This document shows, in pieces, positions 16,834-54,940 of a stretch of DNA of 54,940 nucleotides. The notes beneath the pieces are model-generated. The model worked only from the letters and a program-made list of their open reading frames with translations, was not told the origin of the DNA and made no database searches. The DNA comes from a virus (taxonomy: Duplodnaviria > Caudoviricetes). The stretch lies in IMG/VR virus record IMGVR_UViG_3300037264_005663, positions 1 through 54,940 of that record, one strand, 5' to 3'. A program made the translations under genes and the position numbers. The number at the start of each line of letters is the position of its first letter. The first letter of the stretch is position 1.

Positions 16834-17077
16834 TTCAATGACGCTAGACGGCACGAACGAAGTCTGTGTCTTTGTTGGTGGTGGGAGTTGGGACGGTCAT
16901 CGGTTTCTATTGTGGCGCCCGCTCCCTCTGGTGTTGAAGAGACCCATGTTCATAAACCAGGGAGTGATTCGGCCTCCAGGGGATCTCGATATCACGAAGT
17001 CCAATATCTTGATGCTCACGTTCCACCGTGATGGTCGCGATGACGAGGGTTGTGTCCGCTACGTCTACCAAGGATGA
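16826..17077 (+). CDS. Small GGPxDG-like protein
   Basis: VFVGGGSWDG...YVYQG. Confidence 0.5.
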   Translation: MNDSMTLDGTNEVCVFVGGGSWDGHRFLLWRPLPLVLKRPMFINQGVIRPPGDLDITKSNILMLTFHRDGRDDEGCVRYVYQG

Positions 17078-39792: not shown

Positions 39793-40577
39793 GCATCCAG
39801 ATCGTCAGCGTTGCCAACCGTATCCCGGACAGGAATCGTGAGCCGTATTATCGATTCCAGACTTTCGTGGACAGTCTCGCGCGGTTTGGTGTGAAGCCTG
39901 GCACGCACCCTGGAGACCTACTCATCCTCGGCATGAACGAGTGGTGGGGTGGTCTTATGACGAAGCCACGCCGGCTACGTGATTGGCTCCGGGGCGACGG
40001 GTGCAAGTGCGACACCCTCATCGTGTGCGACGCGTTCGATATCGTATTCTCGGCGCCACCGGCTGAGATCGAGGCGGCGTACGAGCGGTGGGAAGGGAGG
40101 CCCGGGGCGTCGGGCCCCTCCGTCGTGTTCAACGCGGAGAGGGGCCTCTTCCCGCGTCCGGAACTCGCACACGCCTTCTCCGACAACGGGCTGCCGTGGC
40201 GATATCTGAACTCGGGGTTCTTTATTGGCCCGCCGGCGCAGATCCTCGCGCTGCTCGAGGCGATGTGGCTCGACGATATCGCCGACGATTACCGGAGCCC
40301 CGATCAGCTTCACGGCGGCGGCGGGCGGATGATTCATCCGAACGACCAGGGCTGGTATCAGCTCATGTACGCCGCCCAGGTGGTCCCCATGGATTTGGAC
40401 TCCCGCGGTGAGATCGCGCAATGTCTGAGCGCTTGCACACTCGATGAATTCGACCTCTCAGGTCCGCGGATTCGTAACCTCGTGACCGGCACCGAGCCTC
40501 TGGTGTGGCACTTCAACGGCGGGAGCAAGAACGATCTCATGCCCGTGTTCCTGCAGAAGTGGGGGATTCCTACATGA
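39789..40577 (+). CDS. GT-A glycosyltransferase resembling the PLOD/LH3 glycosyltransferase domain
   Basis: WGGLMTK, CDAFDIVF, VVFNAERGLFP, RYLNSGFFIG, NDQGWY, LDSRGEIAQCL, HFNGGSK. Confidence 0.8.
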   Translation: MSIQIVSVANRIPDRNREPYYRFQTFVDSLARFGVKPGTHPGDLLILGMNEWWGGLMTKPRRLRDWLRGDGCKCDTLIVCDAFDIVFSAPPAEIEAAYERWEGRPGASGPSVVFNAERGLFPRPELAHAFSDNGLPWRYLNSGFFIGPPAQILALLEAMWLDDIADDYRSPDQLHGGGGRMIHPNDQGWYQLMYAAQVVPMDLDSRGEIAQCLSACTLDEFDLSGPRIRNLVTGTEPLVWHFNGGSKNDLMPVFLQKWGIPT

Positions 40578-41107
40578 ACCTCCTCGAACTCGCGGGGCTG
40601 ATCGGGGTTGAAGGATTCCTGCATTGCAACGAACTCGAGAAGCTCGTCGAACTCGCGGTAAACCGAGATGTGCTGGAGATCGGGTCCTACCGCGGACTCT
40701 CGGCGTGGGGCATGGGGATGGTCGCCCGCAGCCTCACTTGTGTTGACACCTTCCGCGCCGCGAGCGACGGCCAACGACAGACTGGTAGCCACACGACTCT
40801 CGATGCGTTCAATCTCGCGGTGCGCCGATATAACCACGTGAAGGTATATTCAGTGTCGAGCGAGCGCGCCATAGATCTCGTCGTGGATGACTTCGATATG
40901 GTGTTCGTCGATGCCATGCACACCTATCCCGAAGTCATCGGCGACGTTCAACGTTGGCGTCCACACGTGCGGCCCGGCGGGCTTCTAGTGTTCCACGATT
41001 ACGGGCATGATGCCTTCCCGGGTGTGAAAGAGGCGGTGGACGAGTGCTTCGGTCCGGCGCCGGATGGAACAGTCGAGGTAACGTTGCGCTGGATCGAGAT
41101 CAATTAG
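40574..41107 (+). CDS. Class I SAM methyltransferase (Methyltransf_24-like)
   Basis: VLEIGSYRGLS, FDMVFVDAMHTY, GGLLVFHDY. Confidence 0.9.
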   Translation: MNLLELAGLIGVEGFLHCNELEKLVELAVNRDVLEIGSYRGLSAWGMGMVARSLTCVDTFRAASDGQRQTGSHTTLDAFNLAVRRYNHVKVYSVSSERAIDLVVDDFDMVFVDAMHTYPEVIGDVQRWRPHVRPGGLLVFHDYGHDAFPGVKEAVDECFGPAPDGTVEVTLRWIEIN

Positions 41108-41658
41108 TGTCGATTACTCACTGGTGGGACCGTTCGGTACATGGGATCCCCGTCGTCCGTGAAATCTTCATCGAAACAGGATGCAAAGCGGGAGACACAT
41201 TGTGGCAGGCGAAAGACAAATTCCCGACATGCCATTCGATCGAGATCAATGGGGCCGCGTATGCCGCTTGTCTGGATCGTTTCCGCGATTTCCCGCATGT
41301 CCAGATCCATCTCGGCGACAGTCGCGACGTGCTCCCGCGCATTATTGATCCCACGCGTCCCACCACATTCTATCTCGATGCGCACTGCGAGGGGGCGCCC
41401 TCGACAGTCCCAGAGGCCGACACCGAGTGTCCGCTCCTCGATGAGCTCGATATCATCGTGTATGCGCGATGGACCACACGCCCCACAATTATCATCGACG
41501 ACATTCATATGTTCCACCCTGGATATTGGCGAGATCCCCATAGTAATTGGAGATTGTTTACCCCAGCAGATTGGCCTCGGTTTGAGCAGATCTGTGAACT
41601 CCTGGCGGATTATCGTTTCCACGAAGACACCGAGAATCGGGTTGGTCTGTGGGTCTGA
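41107..41658 (+). CDS. SAM methyltransferase-fold protein
   Basis: FIETG..AG, HSIEI, GDS, FYLDAH, PLLDEL, IIIDD. Confidence 0.75.
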   Translation: MSITHWWDRSVHGIPVVREIFIETGCKAGDTLWQAKDKFPTCHSIEINGAAYAACLDRFRDFPHVQIHLGDSRDVLPRIIDPTRPTTFYLDAHCEGAPSTVPEADTECPLLDELDIIVYARWTTRPTIIIDDIHMFHPGYWRDPHSNWRLFTPADWPRFEQICELLADYRFHEDTENRVGLWV

Positions 41659-42317
41659 TCCGCTCCCGGTGGCCGGGGCTCCTCGTGAACGAAGACAGAG
41701 TGATTGCAGATGAAGGAGCGCTACAGGAGTGTTACGTTGACGATGTATATGGCATTCGTGGATTGCGGGACGTCGAATTCGCACTGGATGTGGGTGCGCA
41801 CATAGGTGGAGCTTCGGCGCTGCTCCATGAATGTTTTCCGAGTGCCCGCATCGTTGCGGTGGAGTGTTGCCCCGAAAACATGCCGTGCCTCGAAGAGAAT
41901 GTCGGGCACTTCGCTGATGTTCTTCATGGTGCTGTGACTTATGAAACTGGCAATATCGTGCTGGCGAGCACGGTCTACGAGGGATGCCGAACGTCTGGGA
42001 GTAGTGTGGTCGTCACGCGCGAACAGTGGGAAACGAAGCGGGTTCCGTGGACTTGGGATCCTGATGATTACCATCTGGACGATCGTCCATTGCTCAGGTG
42101 GACCATCGAGGACATCGTAAAACTAGTGGGCGGACAACAAATCGATCTCTTGAAGCTCGATTGCGAGGGAAGCGAGATCAGCATCCTCATGGGGTGTTCT
42201 ATCTTCGATCGGATTCGAACGATCGTCGGCGAATACCACGACGCCGCGGCATTTACCGCCGTGGCGCCGCCGGGTACCGAGATGTGGGACGGACATTTGT
42301 TTCGAGTGTCGCGATGA
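41649..42317 (+). CDS. FkbM-family methyltransferase
   Basis: LDVGAHIG, IDLLKLDCEGSE, IVGEYH. Confidence 0.9.
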   Translation: MGLIRSRWPGLLVNEDRVIADEGALQECYVDDVYGIRGLRDVEFALDVGAHIGGASALLHECFPSARIVAVECCPENMPCLEENVGHFADVLHGAVTYETGNIVLASTVYEGCRTSGSSVVVTREQWETKRVPWTWDPDDYHLDDRPLLRWTIEDIVKLVGGQQIDLLKLDCEGSEISILMGCSIFDRIRTIVGEYHDAAAFTAVAPPGTEMWDGHLFRVSR

Positions 42318-42436
42318 TCTATCGGTGTCACCCCCATACCGGGCCATCAATCTGGGAGTTCCTGATCGTCCTCGCGGCATTGTTGGCTGTGGGGTCGCTC
42401 TTGGGTTGGCTGACTGGCAGGAAGATGTTCGGATGA
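42314..42436 (+). CDS. 40-aa membrane peptide
   Basis: ATGA overlaps on both sides; hydrophobic helix. Confidence 0.5.
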   Translation: MIYRCHPHTGPSIWEFLIVLAALLAVGSLLGWLTGRKMFG

Positions 42437-43929
42437 AGCCGGCGGTCTGCCTCATCACTCCACCGTCAACGTTCCTCCTCGACGAACGGGTTTTCGTGTC
42501 GTTGGGCATCCTGCGGGTGGCTGCGGTTCTCGAACGGGCCATGTTTCACGTGGAACATCTGGACCTATCGGGGATCGAGAATTACGAGGAAGCGGTGTCC
42601 GACTATGCCTCGCGCACTACAGCCACGGTTTTCGGGCTGACAGCCACGACGCCCCAGATGCCGGCGACCACCAAGATCCTGTCTCGACTGCGCCGGGGCC
42701 GTCCTGGCGTCCGGCTGGTATTGGGTGGCCCCCACGCTACTCTCGTCGCAGCCGCGCGCAGGAGAGAGGCCAAGGCGGGCACTCCGGGGCGGGCCACGGT
42801 CGCCTTCCAGAATATGTCTTCGTTGGTTGATGTGGTTGTCGCCGGCGACGGCGAGGGCGCCATATTCCGCGCTCTTGAGGATGAGCCACCGGCGTTCATT
42901 GATGCCGATGATCCGAAGTCTGATCTGTGGCTTACTGACGAATCTTATGAGACGTTGCCATTCCCGGCTCGGCACCTCGTGGACATGGACTCCTATCACT
43001 ATTCGGTCGAGGGAGAACGGGCAACCTCCATGATCGCGCAGTTGGGGTGCCCGTTCGAGTGCTCGTTTTGCGGCGGCCGGCTCTCCTCTATGTTGCGCAG
43101 AATCCGGACACGCAGCACTTGGTCGGTCGTCGCGGAAATTCGGCATCTCTTTGAAAGTTACGGTGTCCGCGGGATCATGATGTACGACGACGAGTTGAAC
43201 GTCAACAAACAATGCGTCCAACTCATGCGGGCCATCGCGGATCTGGGACGCGATCTAGGGATCGAGTTTAGGCTCCGCGGATTCATCAAGGCGGAACTGT
43301 TCACCGAGGAACAGGCCGAGGCCATGCATGCTGCGGGTTTCCGGTGGATCCTCGTGGGTTTCGAATCGGGATCGCCACGCGTGCTCACGAACATCAACAA
43401 GAAAGCCACACGCGAAGACAATTCGCGCTGCCTCGCGATTGCGCGCCGGCATGGGCTCAAGGTGAAGGCGCTCATGTCGATCGGTCATCCGGGGGAAAAC
43501 TTCGAAACAGTCCAACAGACGCGCGATTGGTTACTCGAGGAGAAGCCTGACGATTTCGACTGCACGGTGATTTCTTGCTATCCTGGGACTCCGTACTATG
43601 ATCACGCCATACAAACGTCTCCCGATGTCTGGACTTACACTGTGCCGCGCACCGGGGACAAACTGCACGCGGTGGACGTCGATTACAGTACCACCGCGGA
43701 CGCATACAAGGGAGTCCCAGGCGACTACCGCGCTTACGTTTTCACCGACTACTTGAGAAGCCAAGATCTAGTCGCCTTGCGTGATTCGCTCGAGTCCGAT
43801 GTGCGCAGGATTCTTGGGATCCCGTTCAACTCCGGCGCTCCTGGCGTGAGATATGAGGCCTCAATGGGACAATTTCCAGGTCATATTCTGCGTCACTCAA
43901 TAAACACTGGGGTGGCAGCGTGCGCGTAG
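42433..43929 (+). CDS. Cobalamin-binding radical SAM enzyme (class B methyltransferase-like)
   Basis: SLGILRVAAVL, VLGGPHAT, GDGE, GCPFECSFC (CX3CX2C), GFESGS, GHPGE, YPGT. Confidence 0.92.
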   Translation: MKPAVCLITPPSTFLLDERVFVSLGILRVAAVLERAMFHVEHLDLSGIENYEEAVSDYASRTTATVFGLTATTPQMPATTKILSRLRRGRPGVRLVLGGPHATLVAAARRREAKAGTPGRATVAFQNMSSLVDVVVAGDGEGAIFRALEDEPPAFIDADDPKSDLWLTDESYETLPFPARHLVDMDSYHYSVEGERATSMIAQLGCPFECSFCGGRLSSMLRRIRTRSTWSVVAEIRHLFESYGVRGIMMYDDELNVNKQCVQLMRAIADLGRDLGIEFRLRGFIKAELFTEEQAEAMHAAGFRWILVGFESGSPRVLTNINKKATREDNSRCLAIARRHGLKVKALMSIGHPGENFETVQQTRDWLLEEKPDDFDCTVISCYPGTPYYDHAIQTSPDVWTYTVPRTGDKLHAVDVDYSTTADAYKGVPGDYRAYVFTDYLRSQDLVALRDSLESDVRRILGIPFNSGAPGVRYEASMGQFPGHILRHSINTGVAACA

Positions 43930-44921
43930 CGTTCCTCCTGTCAAATCTCGGCGGCTCGCCTCTCACCATCGGGCTCGAGCGCGGCATGCGCCTCCTCGGT
44001 CATCAAGTTGTGGACTACACGCCGGATGGAAACTGGGACCTTTTGTTGGTGTTTAATCAATGCGCCCACGTTACGAACTACGCCTATCCTCCGCTCCCAC
44101 CGAAAAATCACGGCCGGCGCATTGCTTTCATTGATACCGCCGAGTACGGATGGACGAAACGAGTGAAGGAGCCAATCGGCACCTACTGGAATGCGTTCGC
44201 TGAGGGCAGCATGACACACGACACCAAGAATCCTGAACAGCAGACGCTGTTGCGCGATTGGCTCGATTGCCAGTCGTTCCCATACTTCGTGCGGGAATTC
44301 TGGAATGCGTGGGCGTTCCCGGCGGCGTACCATCCGATCGATTATCCGCTCTACCAGCCAAGCGCGCACCGGCGGGCGCCAAAACGTGATGAATATCTCA
44401 GGAGGACAACCCAAGTCGCGTGCCTGTGGGGACTGTCTAATCCGTGGAGGGTGAACCTCACAGCGGAGATGGAGGCGTCTCCAGTCGTTAAGGATGTTTA
44501 CGTCATCGAGCGTGATGGTCCGCGGCTCCCACAATTCGGACCGCGCGGATATTTCGAGCGCCTCGAGGCCGCTCGTTGTTCGGTGTCCTTTGACGGCTAC
44601 GGCTCCGGATCGTTTCGCATGACGGAGGTCCTCTGTAGGACTCTGCTCATGCAGGGCCCGCTCGCCATCAAAACCCACGCACCACTCATCCACGGTGACA
44701 CGTGTTGGGCCTACTGCGTATGGGTGGACGGCGAGCATTATGTCCGCAGCGACCTCGTCGAACAGATTCAGGCGGCGATGGCTGACCCAGAGAGGTGCTT
44801 CGAGATTCATCATCGCGGGTTCAATCATTGTATGGCGCATCTTACCGAGCGGGCGACCGCGGAGTATGTGCTCCGCGTGATTGACGCTCACGACTTGAAC
44901 CAAGTGACGAGGATCTATTAG
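43920..44921 (+). CDS. Putative GT-B glycosyltransferase
   Basis: LERGMRLLGHQV; C-terminal YFERL..ARCSVSF.G.G..SFRMTEV...TLL. Confidence 0.6.
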   Translation: MRVAFLLSNLGGSPLTIGLERGMRLLGHQVVDYTPDGNWDLLLVFNQCAHVTNYAYPPLPPKNHGRRIAFIDTAEYGWTKRVKEPIGTYWNAFAEGSMTHDTKNPEQQTLLRDWLDCQSFPYFVREFWNAWAFPAAYHPIDYPLYQPSAHRRAPKRDEYLRRTTQVACLWGLSNPWRVNLTAEMEASPVVKDVYVIERDGPRLPQFGPRGYFERLEAARCSVSFDGYGSGSFRMTEVLCRTLLMQGPLAIKTHAPLIHGDTCWAYCVWVDGEHYVRSDLVEQIQAAMADPERCFEIHHRGFNHCMAHLTERATAEYVLRVIDAHDLNQVTRIY

Positions 44922-44934
44922 TGGGGGAACATCA

Positions 44935-45480
44935 ATGACACTCCGATCTGCGCTTCCTTCCGATACTCGCTATCGCAGCGAGACTGACGTGTACCGGCAT
45001 GTGGTGCTGCCGTGGATTCCGCAGGAAGGAAACGGGCTGGACATTGGGCATGGGGGAGATCCGATAGTTCCATGGGCGGCTACCGTGGACAAGGGCGATG
45101 TCCACATGTCGAATTGCGGCGAACACCCGACGAATTTCTCCGGCGACGCATCGCATCTCCCCTGGTTCACGGATGGAGCGCTGGACTGGATCTACAGCTC
45201 CCACTGCCTCGAGGATTTCGAGGACACGGAATCCGTACTGCGTGAGTGGTTGCGTGTACTACGGGTGGGAGGACGCCTTGTCCTTCTTCTGCCTGACCAG
45301 CGACGCTACGTCGCGCACTGCATCGCTGACGGCACAGAGCCCAACGGCGCCCATAAACATGGAGATTTTGGGCTCACATATATGGAAGCCATCGCTGCTC
45401 GAATCGGCGGTTTGCGCGAGGTCTTTCGTTGGGACCCAGGCGAGGGATACAACTTCGCCGTGGCTTACGAGAAAATCTGA
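44935..45480 (+). CDS. Class I SAM methyltransferase (Methyltransf_11-like)
   Basis: GLDIGHGG, LDWIYSSHCLED, EWLRVLRVGGRLVLLLP. Confidence 0.9.
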   Translation: MTLRSALPSDTRYRSETDVYRHVVLPWIPQEGNGLDIGHGGDPIVPWAATVDKGDVHMSNCGEHPTNFSGDASHLPWFTDGALDWIYSSHCLEDFEDTESVLREWLRVLRVGGRLVLLLPDQRRYVAHCIADGTEPNGAHKHGDFGLTYMEAIAARIGGLREVFRWDPGEGYNFAVAYEKI

Positions 45481-45620
45481 CATCGCCCCCGGGTGCAGCG
45501 AGGGTGGGAGTGTCGGCGTCGTGGTTGCGTCGGCACGGAGGGCCGTCCGTCCGGTTCCGCGGCTCCGGAACGTGTGGCCGGCGAGGTAGCGACTCGGGGG
45601 CGCCACCAGGAGACGACGCG

Positions 45621-45851
45621 ATGCCGTGGCAAGTTGAAGGCGTGGCGGCGAAGTATGGCTGCTGGCGCCGCGCGTGTGCAGTCGCACTCACCAGGGCCAA
45701 GAAAGGCTGGTCATCTACGGTGCGCTGGGTCGGACACAAAAAACAATTTCCGAACAGCGATCCCATGAACCTCGATTTCGTCATGCACGCTGACGGCAGT
45801 AAGGATTACTCCATCGACCCGACGTGGAGCGGACACCCGACACCACCGTGA
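45621..45851 (+). CDS. Hypothetical protein
   Basis: AGGAG upstream. Confidence 0.45.
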   Translation: MPWQVEGVAAKYGCWRRACAVALTRAKKGWSSTVRWVGHKKQFPNSDPMNLDFVMHADGSKDYSIDPTWSGHPTPP

Positions 45852-45867
45852 GATGTGAGCGGAATAG

Positions 45868-46227
45868 ATGGAGGGTCTCCTGATGGCGCCGGATTCGAGC
45901 CACGACCAAGTTACTCTAATCCATCTGACGGAGGGTATTGGTCATCTCAAGGGATCGGTCGGTGCATTGTCGCTGCAAGTCGCTGCGATTCAGACTGAAC
46001 AGATGAACATCCGTCGAGAGATCGGCCAGGGGCTGACCGATGTGCGCCGCGAGATGAAGGCGGATATCCAGGCGATAGCGAATGGTGCGAAGTCGTCGAG
46101 CGGAGATAACGAAGACGAGATCCGCAAGGTGCGAGAGAAGATCGTGTTTGCGTCTGGATGGGTAGCGGCGGCTGGTGTCATTGTCGGATTCCTGGTCCCA
46201 TGGGCCCTCAAAAAGTGGGGTGGATGA
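45868..46227 (+). CDS. Coiled-coil protein with C-terminal TM (XhlA/holin-like)
   Basis: Architecture and position after the structural genes. Confidence 0.55.
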   Translation: MEGLLMAPDSSHDQVTLIHLTEGIGHLKGSVGALSLQVAAIQTEQMNIRREIGQGLTDVRREMKADIQAIANGAKSSSGDNEDEIRKVREKIVFASGWVAAAGVIVGFLVPWALKKWGG

Positions 46228-46537
46228 CGTGGATCTCTCCGGCTTTATGCTCTTCCTCTCTGTTGTGGGCACACTCTCTTACGGCACGGTCGGGACGGTG
46301 CTGGTCTTGCCGGCAGAATCCAGTACAATGCTCAGACTCATTGGTGGCATGCTCCTCGTGACGTCTGCTCTCTTCTTTCTGTCAGCCTTCTATTATTTCG
46401 CCAGTGCGGGGGGCGACTCCGGCGCGGCATCGGCGATGCTCGATTCGCGCGTCGTGTTCTTCGTGATCGCGGATATCCTCGCAGTCTCCGCGATGGTCAA
46501 ACTACTCCGAGAATCGAAAGGGAGACGGAAACAGTGA
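46220..46537 (+). CDS. Three-TM membrane protein (possible holin)
   Basis: Three hydrophobic helices; basic C-terminus. Confidence 0.5.
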   Translation: MDDVDLSGFMLFLSVVGTLSYGTVGTVLVLPAESSTMLRLIGGMLLVTSALFFLSAFYYFASAGGDSGAASAMLDSRVVFFVIADILAVSAMVKLLRESKGRRKQ

Positions 46538-46950
46538 AAATCACTCCGGCTATCGTTCACAAGAACTGGGGCCACGAGGAAATCGTGGTAAACGAGCGCA
46601 AAGCCGGATACTGCGGCAAAATCATGCGCGCGCGTCCTGGCCGGGCCTCGCGCATTGAGCGCCATCGCACCAAGGACGAGACATTCTACGTTCTCGATGG
46701 ATGTGTACGACTCGAGTTGTTCGAGAATTACGACGTTCCCGCGGTTCCAACCGATGCCATCGCGGGATCGTTGCCGGGACAGGGAGAATTCCACGGGAGG
46801 ATCGATCTTCAATCCGGCCAAGGATTCCGCATTCCTCCTGGTGTCTGGCACAGATTCGGCGCCATGGACCCAGGGACGCGGTTCGTCGAATTCTCGACCT
46901 TCCACGACGACGCCGACACCGAGCGCTGGGAGCCATCTAATGCGTGCTGA
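46534..46950 (+). CDS. Cupin, sugar isomerase-like
   Basis: KNWGHEEI, YCGK, HRTKDETFYV, IPPGVWHRF, EFSTFHDD.D. Confidence 0.8.
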   Translation: MKITPAIVHKNWGHEEIVVNERKAGYCGKIMRARPGRASRIERHRTKDETFYVLDGCVRLELFENYDVPAVPTDAIAGSLPGQGEFHGRIDLQSGQGFRIPPGVWHRFGAMDPGTRFVEFSTFHDDADTERWEPSNAC

Positions 46951-47004
46951 CAGATCCAGTACGCATCTTTGCGTTCTCTGACAGATCCAGTACGCATCTT
47001 TGCG
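46947..47004. repeat. Perfect 27-bp tandem direct repeat (period 31)
   Basis: CTGACAGATCCAGTACGCATCTTTGCG at 46947 and 46978. Confidence 0.9.
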
Positions 47005-47055
47005 CCCGTCAACCGGGTGCCTCGGCTCCAGCCCCCATCGCCCGCCCACGACCGT

Positions 47056-47158
47056 TCGCACCCTGCAATCGCCTACCCTTGCACGCTGCAATCCACATTA
47101 TCAGAATCCGCAAAAGATCACCACAGACGGCAAAAGATGATACTGGCATGAGGTATGC
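47056..47158 (+). promoter_or_regulatory. sigma54-type promoter A with paired upstream palindromes
   Basis: TCGCAcccTGCAA 47056, TTGCAcgcTGCAA 47079; TGGCATGAGGTATGC 47144-47158. Confidence 0.7.
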
Positions 47159-47198
47159 GATGTTTGGTTGTGTCTCGGGGAAACAAGGAGACCCTTCG

Positions 47199-47495
47199 AT
47201 GAGCACCAAGCAGAGCAAGACGACGACGATGGGGCAGTGCCCGGGTTGCTCCTCCACCCGCGGTCGTGAGACGGATGTCGTGGGTGTGTACGAATGCGCC
47301 AAATGCGGCGGCGTCGTCGGACAGTGCTACCGCGGCGATGCCTCGCGTTTCGTCGCCATCCATCAACCGATGCAGGCCGAGTGTGAAGACGGAGACGCGC
47401 GCTACTTCGACCTCATGCTCCTCGGATCTCAGGGAATCGAGCGCGTGCACGGATGGATGGACCGCAACACCAAACGGGTCGTGCAGTTCGGTTGA
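47199..47495 (+). CDS. Zn-ribbon protein
   Basis: CPGC...CAKC; RYFDL...RVHGW...VVQFG; AAGGAG RBS. Confidence 0.7.
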   Translation: MSTKQSKTTTMGQCPGCSSTRGRETDVVGVYECAKCGGVVGQCYRGDASRFVAIHQPMQAECEDGDARYFDLMLLGSQGIERVHGWMDRNTKRVVQFG

Positions 47496-47593
47496 CAACT
47501 AACACCCGGGGCGCGCTACGGGGAGGCGCGCTCCGGGACGAGATGCGGCAGTTCAAGGCACGGTGCTACGCGCGGGAGCGCGGGGGGTGGTGC

Positions 47594-47809
47594 GTGGTGA
47601 CTTCCTATGAATTGATCTGTGGAGCGGTGGAGGAGCGCGGGGGCGTGAGCATCTTTCATGAGCATGGTACGTACCATATCCGCTCGCGGCGCTGGCGCGA
47701 GGAGTTACCGGTGATACAATCGTGGTGGAGATGTTCACCTACTCTGCGTGAGGCTAGGCGTCATGCGGCGGAGATTCGGCGCGAGATGCGGCAGTTCGAG
47801 GCGCGGTAG
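47594..47809 (+). CDS. Hypothetical protein between 51-bp direct repeats
   Basis: GTG after GGGGGGTG; FHEHGTYHIR. Confidence 0.5.
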   Translation: MVTSYELICGAVEERGGVSIFHEHGTYHIRSRRWREELPVIQSWWRCSPTLREARRHAAEIRREMRQFEAR

Positions 47810-47838
47810 GACGCGCGGGAGCGCGGGGGGTGCGAGCG

Positions 47839-48042
47839 ATGACTAGGTTCTACGTTTCCCTTTGGCATGGTGAGGGCGGCAGCATCGCCACGGTTATTGA
47901 CCGTCAGGACGATGCTTGTCTGGGCTACTACAGCACGATCCGCGACGGGGCACGCTTCCGTGAGCTGGCCGACATTCAGGCTACCGCCCTCAATCGTGCT
48001 GGTGATTGTGGCACATTGGCCCCTAGGGTTTGGAGTAGCTAG
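47839..48042 (+). CDS. Hypothetical protein
   Basis: ATG after hairpin-GGGGGTG element. Confidence 0.55.
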   Translation: MTRFYVSLWHGEGGSIATVIDRQDDACLGYYSTIRDGARFRELADIQATALNRAGDCGTLAPRVWSS

Positions 48043-48145
48043 CACCCGCCCCGTGGCGCTCGTGTCCCACCGACTAGGTGGCACTCCCAGCCCTGGCCCT
48101 CGCAGGCGCGCGGGGGCTGTGAGCGAGCGGCGGGATCCGGCCGGG

Positions 48146-48545
48146 GCGACCAGCGGCGCGGGGACTGGTCGCAACAACTTGAACAGCTGCGGGAGCAGCG
48201 GGGGTGAGCGGTGCGATACGTCAAGGGAACGATGCTAACTGCTTCAGACCAGCGGCACGTACTAGCCGCCTACGTCCACCGATACACGCTGGAGCATGTC
48301 CCAGCATGGGCTCGCGCTCCACGTCCGAATGGATCGGCCTACCCCGTTCAGTTCGCCTCGGATCGGGAGTGGCTTGAGCATACGGTTTTCGCGGTCAAGT
48401 CCAACGGTAGTCTTGACGCTAGGGTTCGGGCTTGTCGCTCCACCCCGACATGGTGCGCATCGGTTACGGCCTAGCGGCCAGCCGGGGCGACCGGCGGCGC
48501 GGGGACCGGTCGCATACTTGAACGGGCCCGGGAGGGCCGGGGGTG
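48146..48545 (+). repeat. Two copies of a ~60-nt double-hairpin leader with compensatory changes
   Basis: 48146-48206 and 48487-48545; see findings. Confidence 0.75.
48211..48474 (+). CDS. Conserved-looking phage protein
   Basis: YVHRYTLEHVPAWA...QFASDREWLEHT.F. Confidence 0.65.
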   Translation: MRYVKGTMLTASDQRHVLAAYVHRYTLEHVPAWARAPRPNGSAYPVQFASDREWLEHTVFAVKSNGSLDARVRACRSTPTWCASVTA

Positions 48546-48552
48546 CAAAGCC

Positions 48553-48804
48553 ATGACCGACATGATTCCGCCGATCGTTCACATGAACGGGACTTCACGC
48601 GAAGCGCTCGAGAAGCAGCTCCTCGATTTACACAAGTCGTTGCGCGCAACCAGTGAATGCCTGAGTCATGCGTGGCCGAACGGACGCGATTATTATCCCG
48701 AGCCGGGCCGCATGGATCGGGCGCTGCCCTGGTGGGTCGAACTCCAGGCGACGATCGGGAAGGCGATCCAAGACATCGAGGCGTGTCACGCGGAAATGGA
48801 GTAG
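48553..48804 (+). CDS. Hypothetical phage protein
   Basis: VHMNGTS...PNGRDYYP. Confidence 0.65.
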   Translation: MTDMIPPIVHMNGTSREALEKQLLDLHKSLRATSECLSHAWPNGRDYYPEPGRMDRALPWWVELQATIGKAIQDIEACHAEME

Positions 48805-48808
48805 AACG

Positions 48809-49393
48809 ATGCGAACGATCAAGACGAAATTCGCCGGCGAGTGCCGCAAATGTGGGGCGGATCTGGCCGTGGGCGTCGAGGTGGTGTACGAGCGACGGAT
48901 GGGAATCTTCTGCCCTGCCTGCGCCCCGACCGATCCCGAAGAGATCCGCTCCTATCGGCAGGAGGCGGCGGACCGCAAAGCCGATCGGCTCGACGGCTGG
49001 GCGGAGAAGCGCGAGGAGCGAGCCTCTGCCACCCTCAACAGCAATCCGGAAGTGCGGCGCGACTGGGCGTTCATCACACAGCCGGGGCGGATTCCGCTCC
49101 GCGAGAGGATGAATCGTGCGGATGACCGGGCGTGCGAGAGTCTCGGTAAAGCGCGCGAGATGCGCGGCCGTGCGGACAGAATCCGTAAGGTGCGTGTGGC
49201 CGGCGATGCGGAGCGCGCGCGCGAGGCCCATCGCGAGGAAGTGCGCGCGTGGATCGCCAAGGGGCAGCGTGTCTTCTGTCATCACTGGGGAGAGGGAACT
49301 GTCCAGCGTGTGAACCGCAAGACGGGAACCGTGCTCTGGGACAGGATCGCCAAGGCATACCCCGAACCGCTCGAGTGGCTGCAACGAGTCTAA
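48809..49393 (+). CDS. Zn-ribbon plus DUF3560-like protein
   Basis: KFAGECRKCG...CPAC; helical core with QPG; SH3-like GTVQRVNRKT end. Confidence 0.55.
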   Translation: MRTIKTKFAGECRKCGADLAVGVEVVYERRMGIFCPACAPTDPEEIRSYRQEAADRKADRLDGWAEKREERASATLNSNPEVRRDWAFITQPGRIPLRERMNRADDRACESLGKAREMRGRADRIRKVRVAGDAERAREAHREEVRAWIAKGQRVFCHHWGEGTVQRVNRKTGTVLWDRIAKAYPEPLEWLQRV

Positions 49394-49402
49394 CCCTGGA
49401 TG

Positions 49403-49512
49403 TTGCAGATTGCGATGGTGTGCCGTTGCACCGTGCAATTTTCTCCTGTGGTCAGCCCGTGTGGTGCTCTCCGTGGGCTCTCCTGGGCGTTTCGCGTTGG
49501 CACACCAGTTGC
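49403..49512 (+). promoter_or_regulatory. sigma54-type promoter B with paired upstream palindromes
   Basis: TTGCAgatTGCGA 49403, TTGCAccgTGCAA 49426; TGGCACACCAGTTGC 49498-49512. Confidence 0.8.
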
Positions 49513-49563
49513 GATGTTTCGTTGGTGTCCGGGGCAACGAAACGACGAACGCGGGAGACGACG

Positions 49564-49791
49564 ATGAACCAGTACCTGGGATACGAAGTCGAGTGGACCG
49601 ACAACGACGCGGCGCCGGCCATCTTCAAGGGTCCGCGTGGTGCGGTTTATGGTGCGATGCGCTATCGCGACTCCGAGTGGTGCTTCATCGTGGACCTCGG
49701 ACCTCGGACCCCTGGCGTGATCCGCTGGCTGAAGGGCAACGGCTCCGTCGAAATCCCGCGCGGAACTCACGAGATCACCCGCTCGCGGTAA
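49564..49791 (+). CDS. Hypothetical protein
   Basis: GGAG RBS; FKGPRGAVYG. Confidence 0.6.
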   Translation: MNQYLGYEVEWTDNDAAPAIFKGPRGAVYGAMRYRDSEWCFIVDLGPRTPGVIRWLKGNGSVEIPRGTHEITRSR

Positions 49792-49821
49792 CGATCGAAG
49801 ACCGAACAGGAGGACACCACA

Positions 49822-50001
49822 ATGAAGCTCTGTCACATCGCCGACACGGACCACTCAATCGAGACGGTCACTTTGAATTTGGACGACGGAGTGGAAGAGG
49901 TCGAGGTGCTGCGCGCATTCCTGTCAGCTCTCGGATGGGACGGACCATTCGATGGCGCGGGCGATGACTGGGAGCACGGAGCGACCGGGGGAGACGTCTA
50001 A
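49822..50001 (+). CDS. 59-aa acidic protein
   Basis: AGGAGG RBS; translated from the sequence. Confidence 0.55.
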   Translation: MKLCHIADTDHSIETVTLNLDDGVEEVEVLRAFLSALGWDGPFDGAGDDWEHGATGGDV

Positions 50002-50006
50002 ATATC

Positions 50007-50036
50007 TTGACGTTGGGGGACCAGTGGGGGTATAAT
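50007..50036 (+). promoter_or_regulatory. sigma70-type promoter
   Basis: TTGACG-N18-TATAAT. Confidence 0.8.
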
Positions 50037-50078
50037 CGAAGAGCCCACGGCGTCGGAATCACCAACAGAGGAGCACAC

Positions 50079-50342
50079 ATGACGACAGTCAACGTCAACG
50101 ATCTGCCGGTAGTCGAGCATTCGGCGATTGAGGCCGGGAAGGGATACGCCTACCGCCGAAGGCAACCCTGGAGAGACGGCCGCTTGTGGGGGACCGGTAC
50201 AGCCAAACTGACGCGGTGCTACAACTGGGACAGATCACACATGGTCATCCGCAGGGACTCTGGCGATTGGACGTGGTCGGACTTCGACGGTGAGAGGGAA
50301 ATCCGCGGTCCGATTCCTCCCGGGGTCGAGGTGGTCGAATGA
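50079..50342 (+). CDS. Hypothetical protein
   Basis: GAGGAG RBS. Confidence 0.6.
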   Translation: MTTVNVNDLPVVEHSAIEAGKGYAYRRRQPWRDGRLWGTGTAKLTRCYNWDRSHMVIRRDSGDWTWSDFDGEREIRGPIPPGVEVVE

Positions 50343-50530
50343 AATCGCGACTCGAGCGCGAACTCGCGTCGTTCTTCAATCCAAAGAGAACAGCACAGGA
50401 CGACGAACGTTCACGAATCCGCACGGCCAACGAGCACGCCGACGCTGACGAGAAGTGTGGACGCGAGTGGTCCTGCACGTGTGCAGCGTGCCGGTGGTAT
50501 CGGCGCGAACTCAGTCTTGGAGGTCCATGA
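50339..50530 (+). CDS. Small Cys-cluster protein
   Basis: CGREWSCTCAACR. Confidence 0.55.
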   Translation: MKSRLERELASFFNPKRTAQDDERSRIRTANEHADADEKCGREWSCTCAACRWYRRELSLGGP

Positions 50531-50814
50531 TGACCGCTGAACAACGACGCGCGAAGCAGAAGGTTGTCGCCCTCGCGTGCAAGCTCGGAGCGACCCTCGA
50601 TTACGCCGGCGGTGAGATCAATGTCGAGGCTCCTCCTTACCACACGTGGAAGGAGAACCCAGGCGTCCATGAATTGGTGAACTCGCCATGGGATGATGAG
50701 ACGCAGGACGACCTCTGGGCCCGGGCCCTCGAGCGGATGGAATTCGGAGTCGAGCCGTGTACAATCCAAGAGTGCGAGTGGTGCGCAGACACGAGGGCGG
50801 AGGGTGTGTCGTGA
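50527..50814 (+). CDS. Hypothetical protein
   Basis: GGAGG RBS; C-terminal CTIQECEWC. Confidence 0.6.
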   Translation: MMTAEQRRAKQKVVALACKLGATLDYAGGEINVEAPPYHTWKENPGVHELVNSPWDDETQDDLWARALERMEFGVEPCTIQECEWCADTRAEGVS

Positions 50815-51314
50815 GTTCACCAACCAACTACGAGAACGCCTTCCGCGCGGCCGCGGCGCTACTCGATGCGAGCGCCGAGGCCGGCACGCTGGCGTACGAC
50901 ACCCGCGAGCACGTTCGATTCATCATATCTGCCGGGGCGCACGTGGCCAGAGTGCACTGCGACGACGCAATATACTGTCGGTGGAAGGCCGCCGGCGAAT
51001 CGCTCATTGGATATCTCGACACGCTCACCATCTGGTACCAGAGCAGCCGTGTGGAATTCGCCAACGCCGACTGGCTCGAGCTTGCTGGATTCTGGCGCGC
51101 TCTGGAGGTGTGGGCGTTCGGTAAAGCCGACCAGCCGTGCATCAGATGTGCGGTTCGCCATGGTGTGTACGATCCAGACGACGTCACGGCCGGTAATCCG
51201 AATGATCGATACGACAGCGACCGCGGGTGCCCGGAGTGTGTGGCGGAGGTGCTGAGCGGACGTGGTGACCGAGCCGAACTCGAGCGTGATTACGCCCGCT
51301 CGCGGGGTGTCTGA
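50811..51314 (+). CDS. Hypothetical protein
   Basis: GTGA overlap; CIRC...CPEC. Confidence 0.55.
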   Translation: MSSPTNYENAFRAAAALLDASAEAGTLAYDTREHVRFIISAGAHVARVHCDDAIYCRWKAAGESLIGYLDTLTIWYQSSRVEFANADWLELAGFWRALEVWAFGKADQPCIRCAVRHGVYDPDDVTAGNPNDRYDSDRGCPECVAEVLSGRGDRAELERDYARSRGV

Positions 51315-51320
51315 CTGACG

Positions 51321-51430
51321 TTGCACGCTGCAAGGTGGCGCGATTGCAGAGTGTAGTGCAGCGGTGTGTCGCACAGACGGAGGACCCTCCGAGAGTCAAC
51401 GTTGGCACATTGGTATGGCAAGAACCTTGC
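51321..51430 (+). promoter_or_regulatory. sigma54-type promoter C with paired upstream palindromes
   Basis: TTGCAcgcTGCAA 51321, TTGCAgagTGTAG 51344; TGGCAAGAACCTTGC 51416-51430. Confidence 0.75.
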
Positions 51431-51483
51431 GATTGTTTTGGTGTATGGGTGGTGGGGGCAGCCAGCAACGGAGGGAATCGGCG

Positions 51484-51753
51484 ATGAAGCTGAATCGAAT
51501 CAAGGTGATCACGGGCTACGCCGCACATGCGCGGTTCCTGGCCGAATGTGAGGACGAAGAATTCCTCATCCATCCGGTGGGAACGATCCCGCGACAGTCC
51601 CAGATTCCGAGCCCCTACCGCTATTCGCCGACGCACGATGTGCTCGGCTGGAATGGTCGGAAGGTGGTGATCGTCGAGACTCGCCATCGTCGCTACGAGG
51701 TGTTCGAGGTGATTGATGGAACGATCGATCCGTGGGAGGAGGGCTCGCTGTGA
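51484..51753 (+). CDS. Hypothetical protein
   Basis: GGAGG upstream. Confidence 0.6.
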   Translation: MKLNRIKVITGYAAHARFLAECEDEEFLIHPVGTIPRQSQIPSPYRYSPTHDVLGWNGRKVVIVETRHRRYEVFEVIDGTIDPWEEGSL

Positions 51754-52055
51754 TGAAGACCACAACGCAAATCTACGAGCAGCGCCAGCGGGTGTTCAGA
51801 CTCGCGATGTCAGTCGCCAGGGACTCCGCACATCGAGTGCATCCGGAGACGGGCGGCCAGGAACTCCTGGTCCACAACTGGGGGAATGCGGAATCCAAGG
51901 CGGCGTGGGCTCGTGGCTGGGATCGATGGCATCGGATCGCCGGCGCCTTTGACTCAGCGTACGACGCGGCGGAACACCGTAATCATGTGACGCGCGGATT
52001 CAAGCCGCACTGGTGCGAAGACTGTAAAAGCAGCCGGAAGGGGCGTGCATCGTGA
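51753..52055 (+). CDS. Hypothetical protein
   Basis: LLVHNWGN; WCEDC. Confidence 0.55.
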   Translation: MKTTTQIYEQRQRVFRLAMSVARDSAHRVHPETGGQELLVHNWGNAESKAAWARGWDRWHRIAGAFDSAYDAAEHRNHVTRGFKPHWCEDCKSSRKGRAS

Positions 52056-52267
52056 CCCACAAGGAGCGTAGGGCGAAGGGCGCGGCGGTTGCGTATTGGC
52101 ACAAGGCGACTGACGCGGAAAGGCAATTCCATCGCGACCGCGCGCGTCCCGGAGGATCCAGATTTACGGCCGGCTATGCACCGTGGGAACCGTTCACAGC
52201 GTACTTCTATGGCGTTGCCACTCGTGAGTTCGGCATCGCAGTGGGCGAGATCGCGAGGAAGTCATGA
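52052..52267 (+). CDS. Hypothetical protein
   Basis: GTGA overlap. Confidence 0.5.
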   Translation: MTHKERRAKGAAVAYWHKATDAERQFHRDRARPGGSRFTAGYAPWEPFTAYFYGVATREFGIAVGEIARKS

Positions 52268-52455
52268 GCGAGCGTAACGCAGATCACCATGTAACGCTCC
52301 TGGTGTCTCGCGCACAGATTGACCGACTGGTGGAATCACTCGCGCCATCGGTGCTATGTGATACGTACGGCCTCGGTCCAGAGGCCCAGGCAAACCCGCT
52401 GTTCTGGCAGGCACTAGAACGGCGCGCGCGCATGGAGGTCCTGCGCCGCGATTGA
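52264..52455 (+). CDS. Hypothetical protein
   Basis: ATGA overlap. Confidence 0.5.
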   Translation: MSERNADHHVTLLVSRAQIDRLVESLAPSVLCDTYGLGPEAQANPLFWQALERRARMEVLRRD

Positions 52456-52565
52456 TTGCGGCTTGCAAGGTACTGCCATTGCGTGTTGCACGATATCGCA
52501 CGGACGGCCACGGGGATGCCGCTTCCGTGGCCACGGAAGGCGTTATTCACTGGCACGGCGCGTGC
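52456..52565 (+). promoter_or_regulatory. sigma54-type promoter D with paired upstream palindromes
   Basis: TTGCGgctTGCAA 52456, TTGCGtgtTGCAC 52479; TGGCACGGCGCGTGC 52551-52565. Confidence 0.75.
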
Positions 52566-52620
52566 AATACGTAATTGGTGTCCGGGGCGAGTCGAGACCC
52601 TAAACGCGGGAGACGAGACG

Positions 52621-52839
52621 ATGACGAGCAAAGACGTTGAGACTTTCGCCTTCGAGCGGTCACAGGGAAGGAAGCCGCGGGGTCGTGGATGCTGGGCGTT
52701 CACCTTCGATTCGACATCGTACAGGGACGTTTCGGAGGTTTGGTTCGCGCCCGGGTCGATGCTCTACCAGGAAGCCAAGAAACTCGCGGTCGCCGAGGGG
52801 AATCGGCGCGGCGCTCACTTCGCGATGGTGCAGCCTTAG
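52621..52839 (+). CDS. Conserved-looking small phage protein
   Basis: FERSQGRKPRGRGCWAF...YQEAKK. Confidence 0.7.
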   Translation: MTSKDVETFAFERSQGRKPRGRGCWAFTFDSTSYRDVSEVWFAPGSMLYQEAKKLAVAEGNRRGAHFAMVQP

Positions 52840-52905
52840 CCTGCCTCGAAACCCGAACGAGGCCCAACGCCGCGCGCCCGCCCCGCGCGGAGAAAGAACA
52901 CGACG

Positions 52906-53139
52906 ATGGCCACGCAAGAACAGATACTCGCAGCGCAGCGCGAGGAGACTCGATACATCGAACTCCTACGCGAGGCCGACGCAATCGGAACGCGGTGCCG
53001 CGAGTGGGCGCTCGCGACGAATCCGAAACGGGGCGACTGGGAACTCGATCTCATCGAGCGTGCGGCGCGATCTGCGGCGGGTGACATGGCGGCACGGGTC
53101 AAAGCGAAGGGCTACCTGCGATCGGAGGTGTCACGATGA
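52906..53139 (+). CDS. Hypothetical protein
   Basis: Co-oriented ORF. Confidence 0.5.
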   Translation: MATQEQILAAQREETRYIELLREADAIGTRCREWALATNPKRGDWELDLIERAARSAAGDMAARVKAKGYLRSEVSR

Positions 53140-53387
53140 AGATTCCCATTGGCAAATACCACGAACTCGAGGACTTCGGTCCCTCCACTGGACGTTCTGA
53201 TTTCCAGACTGAGTACGTCATGGGAATCGCACAGCGCTCGGACTTCGATTTCTACTGCATGGATCCGATGTGCGACGGTCAGTACAAGGGCCCGTTCAGG
53301 TTGATGTTCTATACCAAGGACGGCGCCCTGCACGCGCACTGGGTCGGGGTCCGCAAGGTGCTCAATACGGCCGTGGCCGCGGACTGA
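53136..53387 (+). CDS. Hypothetical protein
   Basis: GGAGGTG RBS; ATGA overlap. Confidence 0.55.
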   Translation: MKIPIGKYHELEDFGPSTGRSDFQTEYVMGIAQRSDFDFYCMDPMCDGQYKGPFRLMFYTKDGALHAHWVGVRKVLNTAVAAD

Positions 53388-53394
53388 TGCGGAG

Positions 53395-54940
53395 ATGAGG
53401 CTCCTGTTCAACGGTGGGCGGTTCGAGTTCGCCTGCCACTACGAGGACCGCTTCGTCCCCAAAGAGGCGGGGTTCCGCTGGGACAAAGTGGCGCGCGTGT
53501 GGTACACCGATAACCAACGCAACGCATCGCGGCTCATCGAATACGCGAGTGACGACTACGTTCGGTCTGTGCTCGAATCGGTGCGCGAGGAGGTGGCCGA
53601 GGCCGTCAATATGTCGAGCGCGGCGGACGCCGACATTGAGATTCCGGCGCCGGCAGGCTACGAGTACATGGGCTTCCAGCGCGCTGGGATTGCGTTCGCA
53701 CTCCGGCGCAAGGGGACCCTCATCGGCGACGAGATGGGGCTTGGCAAGACCATCCAGGCCATCGGAGTCATGAACGCCGACGTGGCAACCCACCGCTCCC
53801 TCATCATTTGCCCAGCATCACTCAAACTGAATTGGCAGCGCGAACTCGGCCGCTGGTTGGTACGGCCGACTATGGTGTGCCTGGCCACCCCCAAGGAGTT
53901 CCCGCGGCTCGAGCCCGACTGGCCGAAGCGAGACGCCGTGGTGATCGTGAATTACGACGTCCTATACAAGCACGAAAAATGGATTCGCGCGGTGGAGTGG
54001 GACCTCATCGTGGCTGACGAAGCTCACTACATCAAGAATCCGAAGGCGCGGCGGTCGCGCGTGCTCCTGGGCTACCGTGGCAACCCAGCGATCAAGGGTG
54101 CGAGAGGCCCCTGGATTCCAGGTATCGACGCGCGGCGGGTGATCTTCATGACCGGGACTCCCATCGTGAACCGCCCAAGTGAACTCTGGTCGATCATCCA
54201 CAGGCTCGATTCCGAGACTTGGAGATCGTGGCGAGACTACGTCGTACGCTACTGCGGATTCACGCGGAACCGGTGGGGCAGCGATGTCAGCGGTGCGTCG
54301 AATCTCGATGAGTTGCAGATGAAGCTCCGCTCCAGTGTCCTGGTGCGCCGCCTCAAGAAAGACGTGCTGAAGGAATTGCCGGCGAAGCGGCGCCAAGTCA
54401 TCGAAATTCCGGCGACTGTCGAGACGCAGCACCTCGTGGCGCGCGAGCGTGCGGCCATCGCGGCCAACGAGGACCGAATTCTGCAGCTCAAGATCGCGGT
54501 GGAGTTGGCCAAGGCATGTGAGGATGACGAGGCATATCGCGTAGCGGTGCGCGCGATGTCCCGCGGGATTATGACGGATTTCACGGAGATTTCGAAGTTG
54601 CGCCACCAGACGGCATTGGCCAAAGTGGGCGACGTCATCGAGCACCTGAAGGAGTTGGTTGACGAGGAGGGCGTCAAGGTCGTGTGTTTCGCACATCACA
54701 AGGATGTAATCGCCCAGATCGCCGGCGCCTTCAAGGGTAAGTCGGTCGTGCTCACCGGCGACACCTCACTCGAGGATCGCCAGCGCGCGGTTGATCGATT
54801 CCAGAAGGACGGGGCTATCCGGCTCTTCGTGGGATCGATCACTGCCGCGGGCGTGGGACTCACGTTGACGGCGTCCTCTAGTGTGGTGTTCGCCGAATTG
54901 GACTGGGTTCCCGGGAACGTGACACAGGCCGAGGATCGCT
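53395..54940 (+). CDS. SNF2/HARP-like (SMARCAL1-type) helicase, 3'-truncated
   Basis: Absent from the ORF track because it has no stop. Read from sequence: GFRWD..ARVWY, GDEMGLGKTIQA, ICPASLKLNW, DEAHYIKN, MTGTPIVNRP, VRRLKKDVL..LP.K, GVGLTLT, ELDWVPG...QAEDR. Confidence 0.92.
   Translation, partial: MRLLFNGGRFEFACHYEDRFVPKEAGFRWDKVARVWYTDNQRNASRLIEYASDDYVRSVLESVREEVAEAVNMSSAADADIEIPAPAGYEYMGFQRAGIAFALRRKGTLIGDEMGLGKTIQAIGVMNADVATHRSLIICPASLKLNWQRELGRWLVRPTMVCLATPKEFPRLEPDWPKRDAVVIVNYDVLYKHEKWIRAVEWDLIVADEAHYIKNPKARRSRVLLGYRGNPAIKGARGPWIPGIDARRVIFMTGTPIVNRPSELWSIIHRLDSETWRSWRDYVVRYCGFTRNRWGSDVSGASNLDELQMKLRSSVLVRRLKKDVLKELPAKRRQVIEIPATVETQHLVARERAAIAANEDRILQLKIAVELAKACEDDEAYRVAVRAMSRGIMTDFTEISKLRHQTALAKVGDVIEHLKELVDEEGVKVVCFAHHKDVIAQIAGAFKGKSVVLTGDTSLEDRQRAVDRFQKDGAIRLFVGSITAAGVGLTLTASSSVVFAELDWVPGNVTQAEDR

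Follow-up and report, generated by a model that had tools for sequence, protein, structure and literature searches.

Four predicted sigma-54-type promoters with paired enhancer-like dyads head consecutive gene units in an uncultivated tailed phage

The DNA analyzed here (hereafter the window) is the whole of IMG/VR virus record IMGVR_UViG_3300037264_005663 (54,940 nucleotides (nt), classed as linear, 56% complete according to CheckV), which derives from an uncultivated sediment phage identified as tailed from its assigned genes. The plus strand carries nearly all convincing open reading frames (ORFs) and, towards the end of the record, a block encoding about 20 small proteins and an SNF2-family helicase. 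Within this block are four intergenic gaps of 248, 170, 169, and 165 nt, the largest four of the 46.9–53.4 kb region, and each holds one copy of a composite element, made up of two dyads resembling TTGCA-N3-TGCAA, a spacer, and a TGGCA-N7-TGC core of the type found in promoters for the alternative sigma factor sigma-54 (RpoN). These putative promoters would head four consecutive co-directional units, predicted at 47.2–49.4, 49.6–51.3, 51.5–52.5, and 52.6 to at least 54.9 kb. Based on its gene content and its position before the helicase, the block is presumed to be an early/replication module.

All elements of the block are on the plus strand. In unit 1, the enhancer (47056..47091) includes a distal dyad at 47056-47068 with one mismatch and a perfect proximal dyad at 47079-47091, the sigma-54-type core is located at 47144..47158 with its GG and GC 10 nt apart, and the transcription start is predicted at ~47170-47171, ahead of six small ORFs of 98, 88, 67, 80-87, 83, and 194 amino acids (aa) spanning 47199..49393. 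Unit 2 has its enhancer at 49403..49438 (dyads at 49403, one mismatch, and 49426, perfect), its core at 49498..49512, a predicted start at ~49524-49525 within the leader sequence TTGGTGTCCGGGG, and ORFs of 75, 59, 87, 63, 94-95, and 167 aa at 49564..51314. Unit 3 combines an enhancer at 51321..51356 (dyads at 51321, perfect, and 51344, two mismatches) with a core at 51416..51430, a predicted start at ~51442-51443, and ORFs of 89, 100, 71, and 63 aa at 51484..52455. Finally, the enhancer of unit 4 is found at 52456..52491 (dyads at 52456, one mismatch, and 52479, two mismatches) and its core at 52551..52565, with a predicted start at ~52577-52578, and the unit itself (52621..54940) includes ORFs of 72, 77, and 83 aa, then the helicase, which begins at 53395 and is cut by the 3′ end of the record. 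None of the small proteins in these units received a family assignment above threshold, the only hints being weak, sub-threshold matches to zinc ribbons.

The arrangement of these elements is far more regular than expected by chance. Paired dyads start 23 bp apart in all four units, and the proximal dyad and TGGCA are separated by 52 nt in unit 1 and by 59 nt in units 2, 3, and 4. Each core is upstream of and co-oriented with an ORF, with 40–55 nt to a start codon associated with a Shine-Dalgarno-like purine run. When defined as two dyads with up to two mismatches each and separated by N10, then N45-70 and TGGCA-N7-TGC, the composite was found four times in the record and in none of 300 dinucleotide-preserving shuffles. 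The same was true of 23-bp dyad pairs when the core was not required (four in the record, 0/300 shuffles), while a pattern fitted to units 2–4 yielded three matches in the window and none in 100 shuffles. Taken individually, the components are less distinctive. TGGCA-N7-TGC has four matches in the whole record (47144, 49498, 51416, and 52551, all on the plus strand), a count which is by itself unremarkable (shuffle mean of 1.83, with four or more matches in 13 of 100 shuffles). The dyad is found six times with at most one mismatch, always inside the four gaps, and 18 times with at most two mismatches, for a shuffle mean of 16, the 10 matches outside the gaps being at chance level. The common architecture of the four gaps, first proposed in an initial annotation of this sequence, is thus well supported. 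This annotation also listed eight TTGCA-N3-TGCAA-like palindromes, for which the 23-bp pairing holds, but the first dyad begins with TCGCA and two of the eight are weak (three are perfect, and three have a single mismatch).

Alignment of the four gaps shows conservation of the dyads, of TGGCA, of TGC followed by A/G-A-T, and of a block starting 9 nt past TGC. This last block corresponds to the 13-nt leader TTGGTGTCCGGGG, identical in units 2 and 4 and degenerate in units 1 and 3. The similar leader and ribosome-binding site previously noted after each core are present. In contrast, the 59-nt spacers are of equal length in three of the four units yet divergent in sequence. Conserved dyads, core, and start region combined with a variable spacer sequence point to selection on the parts that matter. 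The spacer of unit 1 includes two GCAAAAGAT repeats 20 nt apart, where units 2–4 have G+C-rich inverted repeats, and the hairpins predicted in the spacers are weak (z-scores of −0.8 to −1.7) and are not claimed as terminators. A second TGGCAC precedes the core of unit 3 by 13 nt (51403-51415), with no GC at the right distance, and is likely a decoy or a remnant.

Sigma-54 promoters follow the consensus TGGCACG-N4-TTGCW, with an invariant GG and GC 10 nt apart. A scan against this consensus, one of the checks suggested by the initial annotation, returned the four sites with scores of 9, 10, 10, and 11 of 12 for units 1–4, respectively, and they are not unique by score alone. All four copies nevertheless keep GG and GC at the exact 10-nt spacing, as well as TGGCA and TGC, whereas the N7 between them varies. 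A simple consensus scan detected no sigma-70-like promoter in the four gaps, and the sole plus-strand candidate in the 46.0–54.9 kb region is located at 50007-50036 (11/12), in a 77-nt gap inside unit 2. Further plus-strand sigma-70-like promoters are found at 4825-4854 (11/12) and 5321-5349 (10/12), which suggests that both forms of the polymerase serve this phage.

The region is also represented, as contigs, in public sequencing data, namely one DNA run, and three metatranscriptome runs from another study. Contigs from the RNA libraries span 46900-47471 (unit 1) and 52152-52838 (unit 4), with short contigs starting at 51401 and 51427, but these libraries possibly include DNA, so that the contigs demonstrate neither start sites nor transcription. 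Separately, a public DNA contig from the likely source sample (run X1) matches the window up to 49568, just past the start codon of the first unit 2 gene, and then diverges, which hints at a mosaic relative sharing the promoter but not the gene.

A survey of a species-level genome collection for perfect dyad pairs at 23-bp spacing, akin to the search of candidate host genomes suggested in the initial annotation, identified 95 bacterial loci, when about one would be expected by our own arithmetic. An exact TGGCA-N7-TGC was found 40–125 nt to one side of the pair in 21 of these 95 loci, compared to 10 of 1637 positions drawn at random from these loci, with gaps to the core clustering at 52, 62, 74-76, 83-87, and 101-107 nt. 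ORFs with a GAFTGA-type loop were identified in 11 of the 95 loci, and for seven of these 11 the corresponding gene ends 3–700 nt upstream of the dyads and is co-oriented with a following sigma-54 core (five exact, and two CGGCA variants). All eight activator-like proteins scanned matched NtrC-family response-regulator activator models, and two were nearest to the LuxO model, although none of the eight reached an NCBIfam equivalog cut-off. Among other spacings (18–28 bp scan), 21 bp was the most common, representing 66 of the 131 perfect pairs among the matches listed, mostly from Planctomycetota, and a core was found nearby in two of 56 such loci among the matches listed (L237-L350). These 21-bp pairs probably belong to a different regulator. 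Hence, 23-bp dyad pairs are a minority spacing class, but one that is tied to sigma-54.

Seven NtrC-family loci from Desulfobacterota, Deferribacteres, and Gammaproteobacteria (L143, L150, L164, L167, L169, L212, and L219) display the order activator, dyad pair, sigma-54 promoter, and target. They have in common with the phage units a perfect dyad, the 23-bp spacing, and a core downstream on the same strand, and differ by their 74–86 nt gap to the core and by an activator gene adjoining the site, when none is found in the phage window. Separately, in Thalassospira and other Rhodospirillales (L132, L159, L187, L193, L209, L210, and L213), a perfect dyad pair lies 105–107 nt before a sigma-54 core, downstream of which is a conserved stretch with no credible ORF and, in L159, L187, and L210, no Rfam match. 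This stretch is a candidate for an unannotated small RNA under the control of a LuxO-like activator.

The pattern fitted to units 2–4 was detected in 37 bacterial loci (~6 expected, again by our own arithmetic), mostly from Alpha-, Beta-, and Gammaproteobacteria, Desulfobacterota, and Bacteroidales. Since each of these loci included a single match, none represents a prophage copy. Three of the 37 are Vibrio loci, and in all three the proximal dyad is 60–62 nt before TGGCA, a weaker second dyad is found 23 bp upstream, and a Qrr RNA (Rfam RF00378, 65–86 bits) begins 12–13 nt past the C of GC. Qrr RNAs are known targets of the response regulator LuxO. LuxO sites identified by chromatin immunoprecipitation sequencing at V. 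cholerae qrr1-4 correspond to ttgcaNNNtgcaa (PMC10328515). The phage elements thus share with the LuxO-Qrr system of Vibrionaceae the outer bases of the TTGCA-N3-TGCAA dyad, along with the 23-bp pairing, the TGGCA-N7-TGC core, and a similar distance from proximal dyad to core (59 nt in units 2–4, within 1–3 nt of Vibrio). However, the dyad centers are G+C-rich in the phage, the phage units head protein-coding operons, with a ribosome-binding site and an ORF, rather than a Qrr RNA (no Rfam family matched in the window), and the four copies are packed in 5.5 kb of a virus with 57–64% G+C, compared to ~45% in the Vibrio loci. Because of this difference in base composition, the host is probably not Vibrio. 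Overall, the occurrence of the same dyad pair and core in bacteria, beside NtrC-family genes and upstream of Qrr RNAs, supports the original interpretation of this layout as sigma-54 promoters with upstream enhancers.

From these comparisons, we consider it quite likely that the four elements are working sigma-54 promoters with enhancers, and favor, with moderate confidence, a model in which four enhancer-dependent sigma-54 promoters would be activated by a LuxO/NtrC-like response regulator of the host. In this model, host RNA polymerase associated with sigma-54 would sit on the −24/−12 element as a closed complex unable to open alone, while dimers of an NtrC-family activator would bind the two dyads, centered ~92 and 115 nt upstream of the predicted start (85 and 108 nt in unit 1), within the roughly 80–150 nt expected for such enhancers. 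The activator would then form an ATPase ring, contact the polymerase via DNA looping, and open the promoter. Transcription would start 12–13 nt past the C of GC, at the G of a conserved TTGG in units 2 and 4, a prediction transferred from the Qrr geometry. The block would then fire only when the host signaling pathway is on. At the enteric promoter glnAp2, NtrC similarly occupies two dimer sites ~100–140 nt upstream of a −24/−12 promoter and acts through looping and ATP hydrolysis. Layout and mechanism would be alike, although the NtrC half-sites and their spacing differ from the phage dyad. What we infer here, rather than observe, comprises the dependence on sigma-54, the positions of the starts, a host origin for the activator, and a gating by host physiology. 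A stronger version, in which the whole early/replication block would be under four obligatory switches opened only by a phosphorylated host LuxO/NtrC-type regulator, with essentially zero leak and infection proceeding or stalling with the host signal, as a sigma-54 variant of eavesdropping or of “lytic deferment”, is more tentative, and we would currently lean against it.

The nature of the activator is central to this model. No match to Sigma54_activat (PF00158) was detected in the window at E up to 1, and no GAFTGA-like motif in its six frames. The PHROG family phrog_7998, which matches the activator ATPase domain (E 3.8e-52), aligned to the window only across an 18-position P-loop, which is not a real match. 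This is consistent with the initial annotation, according to which the window encodes no AAA+ activator, with the caveat that the record is incomplete. Sigma54_DBD was not detected in the window either, hence no sigma-54 gene was seen. Across 50,697 deposited phage records, 82 included activator-like matches, and 11 of 15 among the matches listed were bacterial genome contigs or records with a host glnG/atoC annotation, so that phage-borne activators look rare. Since the dyad matches the sequence recognized by LuxO in its outer bases and no activator is encoded in these 54.9 kb, a host response regulator is the most likely activator, and, provided that the promoters are real, it is clearly favored over a phage-encoded one.

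In an alternative scenario, genuine sigma-54 promoters would depend on an activator that the phage itself encodes, on the missing part of its genome, and the four promoters would form an internal timing cascade instead of a read-out of host signals. The existence of phrog_7998 illustrates that phages or prophages can carry copies of the activator ATPase, the sigma-70-like promoters at 4825, 5321, and 50007 suggest that this phage also uses the housekeeping polymerase, and the record is evidently incomplete, which also weighs against a host activator. Specifically, the helicase is truncated within motif VI, when three relatives (L221, L002, and L222) extend further with a conserved tail of 51–161 residues, and a public DNA contig continues for ~599 nt past the end of the window. 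However, the window already includes a large terminase (17050-18741, phrog_38, E 1.8e-56), so that the terminase provides no argument for incompleteness, as well as a portal, a prohead protease, a capsid-like structural protein, an adaptor, a tape measure, a replication initiator (386-1459), and the helicase. In addition, the helicase of L221 is directly followed by a homolog of the initiator found at the start of our window, which suggests that the two ends of the window are close in the genome and that the gap is small, maybe ~0.5 kb. The CheckV estimate of 56% may then reflect the large genomes of remote references. Given this probably limited room and the mostly bacterial origin of the activator-like matches listed from phage records, we consider a phage-encoded activator unlikely. 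A simple circular genome was also evaluated and rejected, as the frame is open across both ends, yet continues neither helicase motif VI nor the conserved tail of the relatives. An exact 50-mer from the window end matched no other viral contig.

The resemblance to sigma-54 promoters could also be coincidental, with the four gaps representing a duplicated cassette with sites for a phage regulator or a dimeric host factor, transcribed with another sigma factor. Several observations pull in this direction or otherwise weigh against the sigma-54 model. First, the host may lack RpoN: cultured relatives are remote, with a portal 31% identical to that of Streptomyces phages and a helicase ~40% identical to those of Thermus, Microcystis, and Rhodothermus phages. 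Streptomyces is not known to carry sigma-54, and a host without RpoN is conceivable. Next, 74 of the 95 bacterial dyad-pair loci, including Arthrobacter and many Acetobacteraceae, have no core, i.e., the pair is not exclusive to sigma-54. In terms of sequence, the TGGCA-N7-TGC count is not significant alone, two minus-strand sites elsewhere also score 10/12 when unit 1 only scores 9/12 (plain 12-position score), and dyads match those of Vibrio in their outer 5+5 bases while their three central bases are G+C-rich in the phage and A+T-rich in Vibrio. In terms of geometry, the 59-nt gap of the phage falls between the clusters observed for the 21 bacterial loci with a core, and the gap in unit 1 is 7 nt off the other units, a difference that does not correspond to a helical repeat. 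Sigma-54 promoters are not known to use a leader like the conserved one seen here, which as RNA folds no better than shuffles (z-scores of +0.2 to +1.3). Finally, the design is conserved in no relative, including the nearest ones by helicase (L002, L221, and L222, 44–50% identity), which have neither dyads nor a positioned core.

These observations must be balanced against the invariance of GG/GC, TGGCA, and TGC in the four copies while the intervening spacer varies, an order and distance of dyads and core matching those of bacterial sigma-54 loci including Qrr promoters, and the lack of a sigma-70-like hexamer pair in the gaps. Similarly, no other polymerase or sigma factor gene was identified in scans covering a subset of the ORFs. 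Taken together, we see a coincidental resemblance as improbable, and retain enhancer-dependent sigma-54 promoters as the best explanation for the four gaps.

A third proposal extends a suggestion of the initial annotation, that a Fis-type helix-turn-helix (HTH) protein of the phage may modulate these promoters. This protein would bind the dyads and either compete with or assist the activator, which would be compatible with a host regulator. The candidate is a seemingly genuine 66-aa ORF (12594-12794) whose HTH_8 domain at 12663-12749 scores 30.2 bits (cut-off of 22); NtrC-family activators and Fis bind DNA through this fold. The ORF is translationally coupled to the preceding one, a cysteine-rich 79-aa ORF with whose stop it shares 1 nt (12355-12794 for the pair). 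However, its recognition helix is unlike the T-L-W/Y-R-K of the 11 activators found near bacterial dyad pairs (best BLAST E 3.6e-5), it has no PHROG family match, it is located 34 kb from the promoters with nothing that connects it to them, and the 55 relatives found with an E cut-off of 1e-3 (including itself) are mostly small stand-alone proteins with 32–55% identity, of which 38 are at most 175 aa and only 11 reach an activator-like length of 400 aa or more, all of which makes such a role very doubtful.

The unit 2–4 pattern was found in no other IMG/VR contig, when the three matches in the window were recovered as a positive control. A search for one perfect dyad plus a core identified at least 119 IMG/VR loci and at least 128 matches, but none of the matches listed had a second dyad with up to two mismatches at ±23 bp (the best had 3). 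A strict two-dyad pattern matched no viral contig, although this pattern would miss the window too, and the sole match from another pattern scan (L125) was inside a coding sequence and unrelated. No near match was obtained among deposited phages, no relative of the portal in the genome collection, and no prophage relative turned up, while a protein atlas returned only viral capsid clusters. As a separate observation, L002 (49% identity by helicase) has repeated sigma-70-like promoters, CTTGAC-N18-TATSTGTGTGTC, at 330-360 and 2685-2715, before early genes, suggesting that related phages solve the same task differently.

If the sigma-54 model is correct, placing ~8 kb of early/replication genes behind such promoters would hand the decision to proceed to a signaling protein. 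If this activator is the host's, the virus would read a two-component or quorum-type pathway of its host via plain DNA sites, with no receptor encoded by the phage. The individual elements are canonical, and what is new is their occurrence four in a row, heading a block in a virus with no activator in 55 kb. The paired TTGCA-N3-TGCAA enhancer also seems to be used well beyond Vibrio, both beside NtrC-family regulators and ahead of conserved non-coding stretches that lack an annotation. Without their activator, sigma-54 promoters stay silent, whereas CtrA, another response regulator, acts with sigma-70-type promoters and needs no ATPase. The initial annotation mentioned few phage examples, and in our searches of the open-access literature we similarly found no phage reported to have more than one sigma-54 promoter equipped with enhancers. 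The nearest precedents are the one sigma-54-like promoter of Pseudomonas phage YuA, reported together with others of sigma-70-like and phage-specific types (PMC10914365, citing Ceyssens et al. 2008b), and the clusters of CtrA-binding sites in alphaproteobacterial phages, for which phage expression follows the host signaling state in a “lytic deferment” (PMC9437464). YuA and the phage described here would both have promoters assigned to sigma-54, but the one in YuA is single and has no enhancer architecture described in the passage cited. As in CtrA phages, promoters of our phage would carry sites for a host response regulator, except that the coupling here would be obligatory. Other cases include a putative sigma-54-like protein in Pectobacterium phage Q19 (PMC7693777) and Gifsy-1 prophage genes affecting the RtcR regulon (PMC9879122).

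Other features of the window include two perfect copies of a 27-nt direct repeat (about 46940-47004, plus strand), whose starts are separated by 31 nt. They directly follow the final gene of the preceding block, 50 nt ahead of the first enhancer, and each comprises a terminator-like hairpin, then CTTTGCG. The repeats probably delimit the upstream transcription unit. Unit 1 also contains two pairs of repeated segments located just before small ORFs, 48137-48173/48478-48514 and 47534-47589/47777-47832 (92% and 88% identical, respectively). The first pair forms an 8-bp hairpin, in which the two copies differ by a compensatory change (A-T vs. G-C).

Across the record, G+C content per 2-kb window is 57–64% (for the first and last 30 kb) and is accompanied by a consistently positive GC skew, and neither a tRNA nor a tyrosine integrase was found in the window. 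In a 540-aa protein (5515-7137), a P-loop kinase-like domain is fused to a short domain resembling adenylosuccinate synthetase. Among solved structures, its best relatives are the short enzymes of archaea (E 1.7e-52), followed by phage PurZ (E ~5e-32). This PurA/PurZ-like fusion could point to modified purines in the phage DNA, along the lines of a Z-genome, and no MazG- or HD-type partner was identified among the ORFs scanned. Finally, the end of the long gene block preceding the four units (39789-46950) encodes a run of modification-type enzymes, including a PLOD-type glycosyltransferase, an FkbM methyltransferase, a B12-binding radical SAM enzyme, a class I methyltransferase, and a cupin/lyxose-isomerase-like protein.

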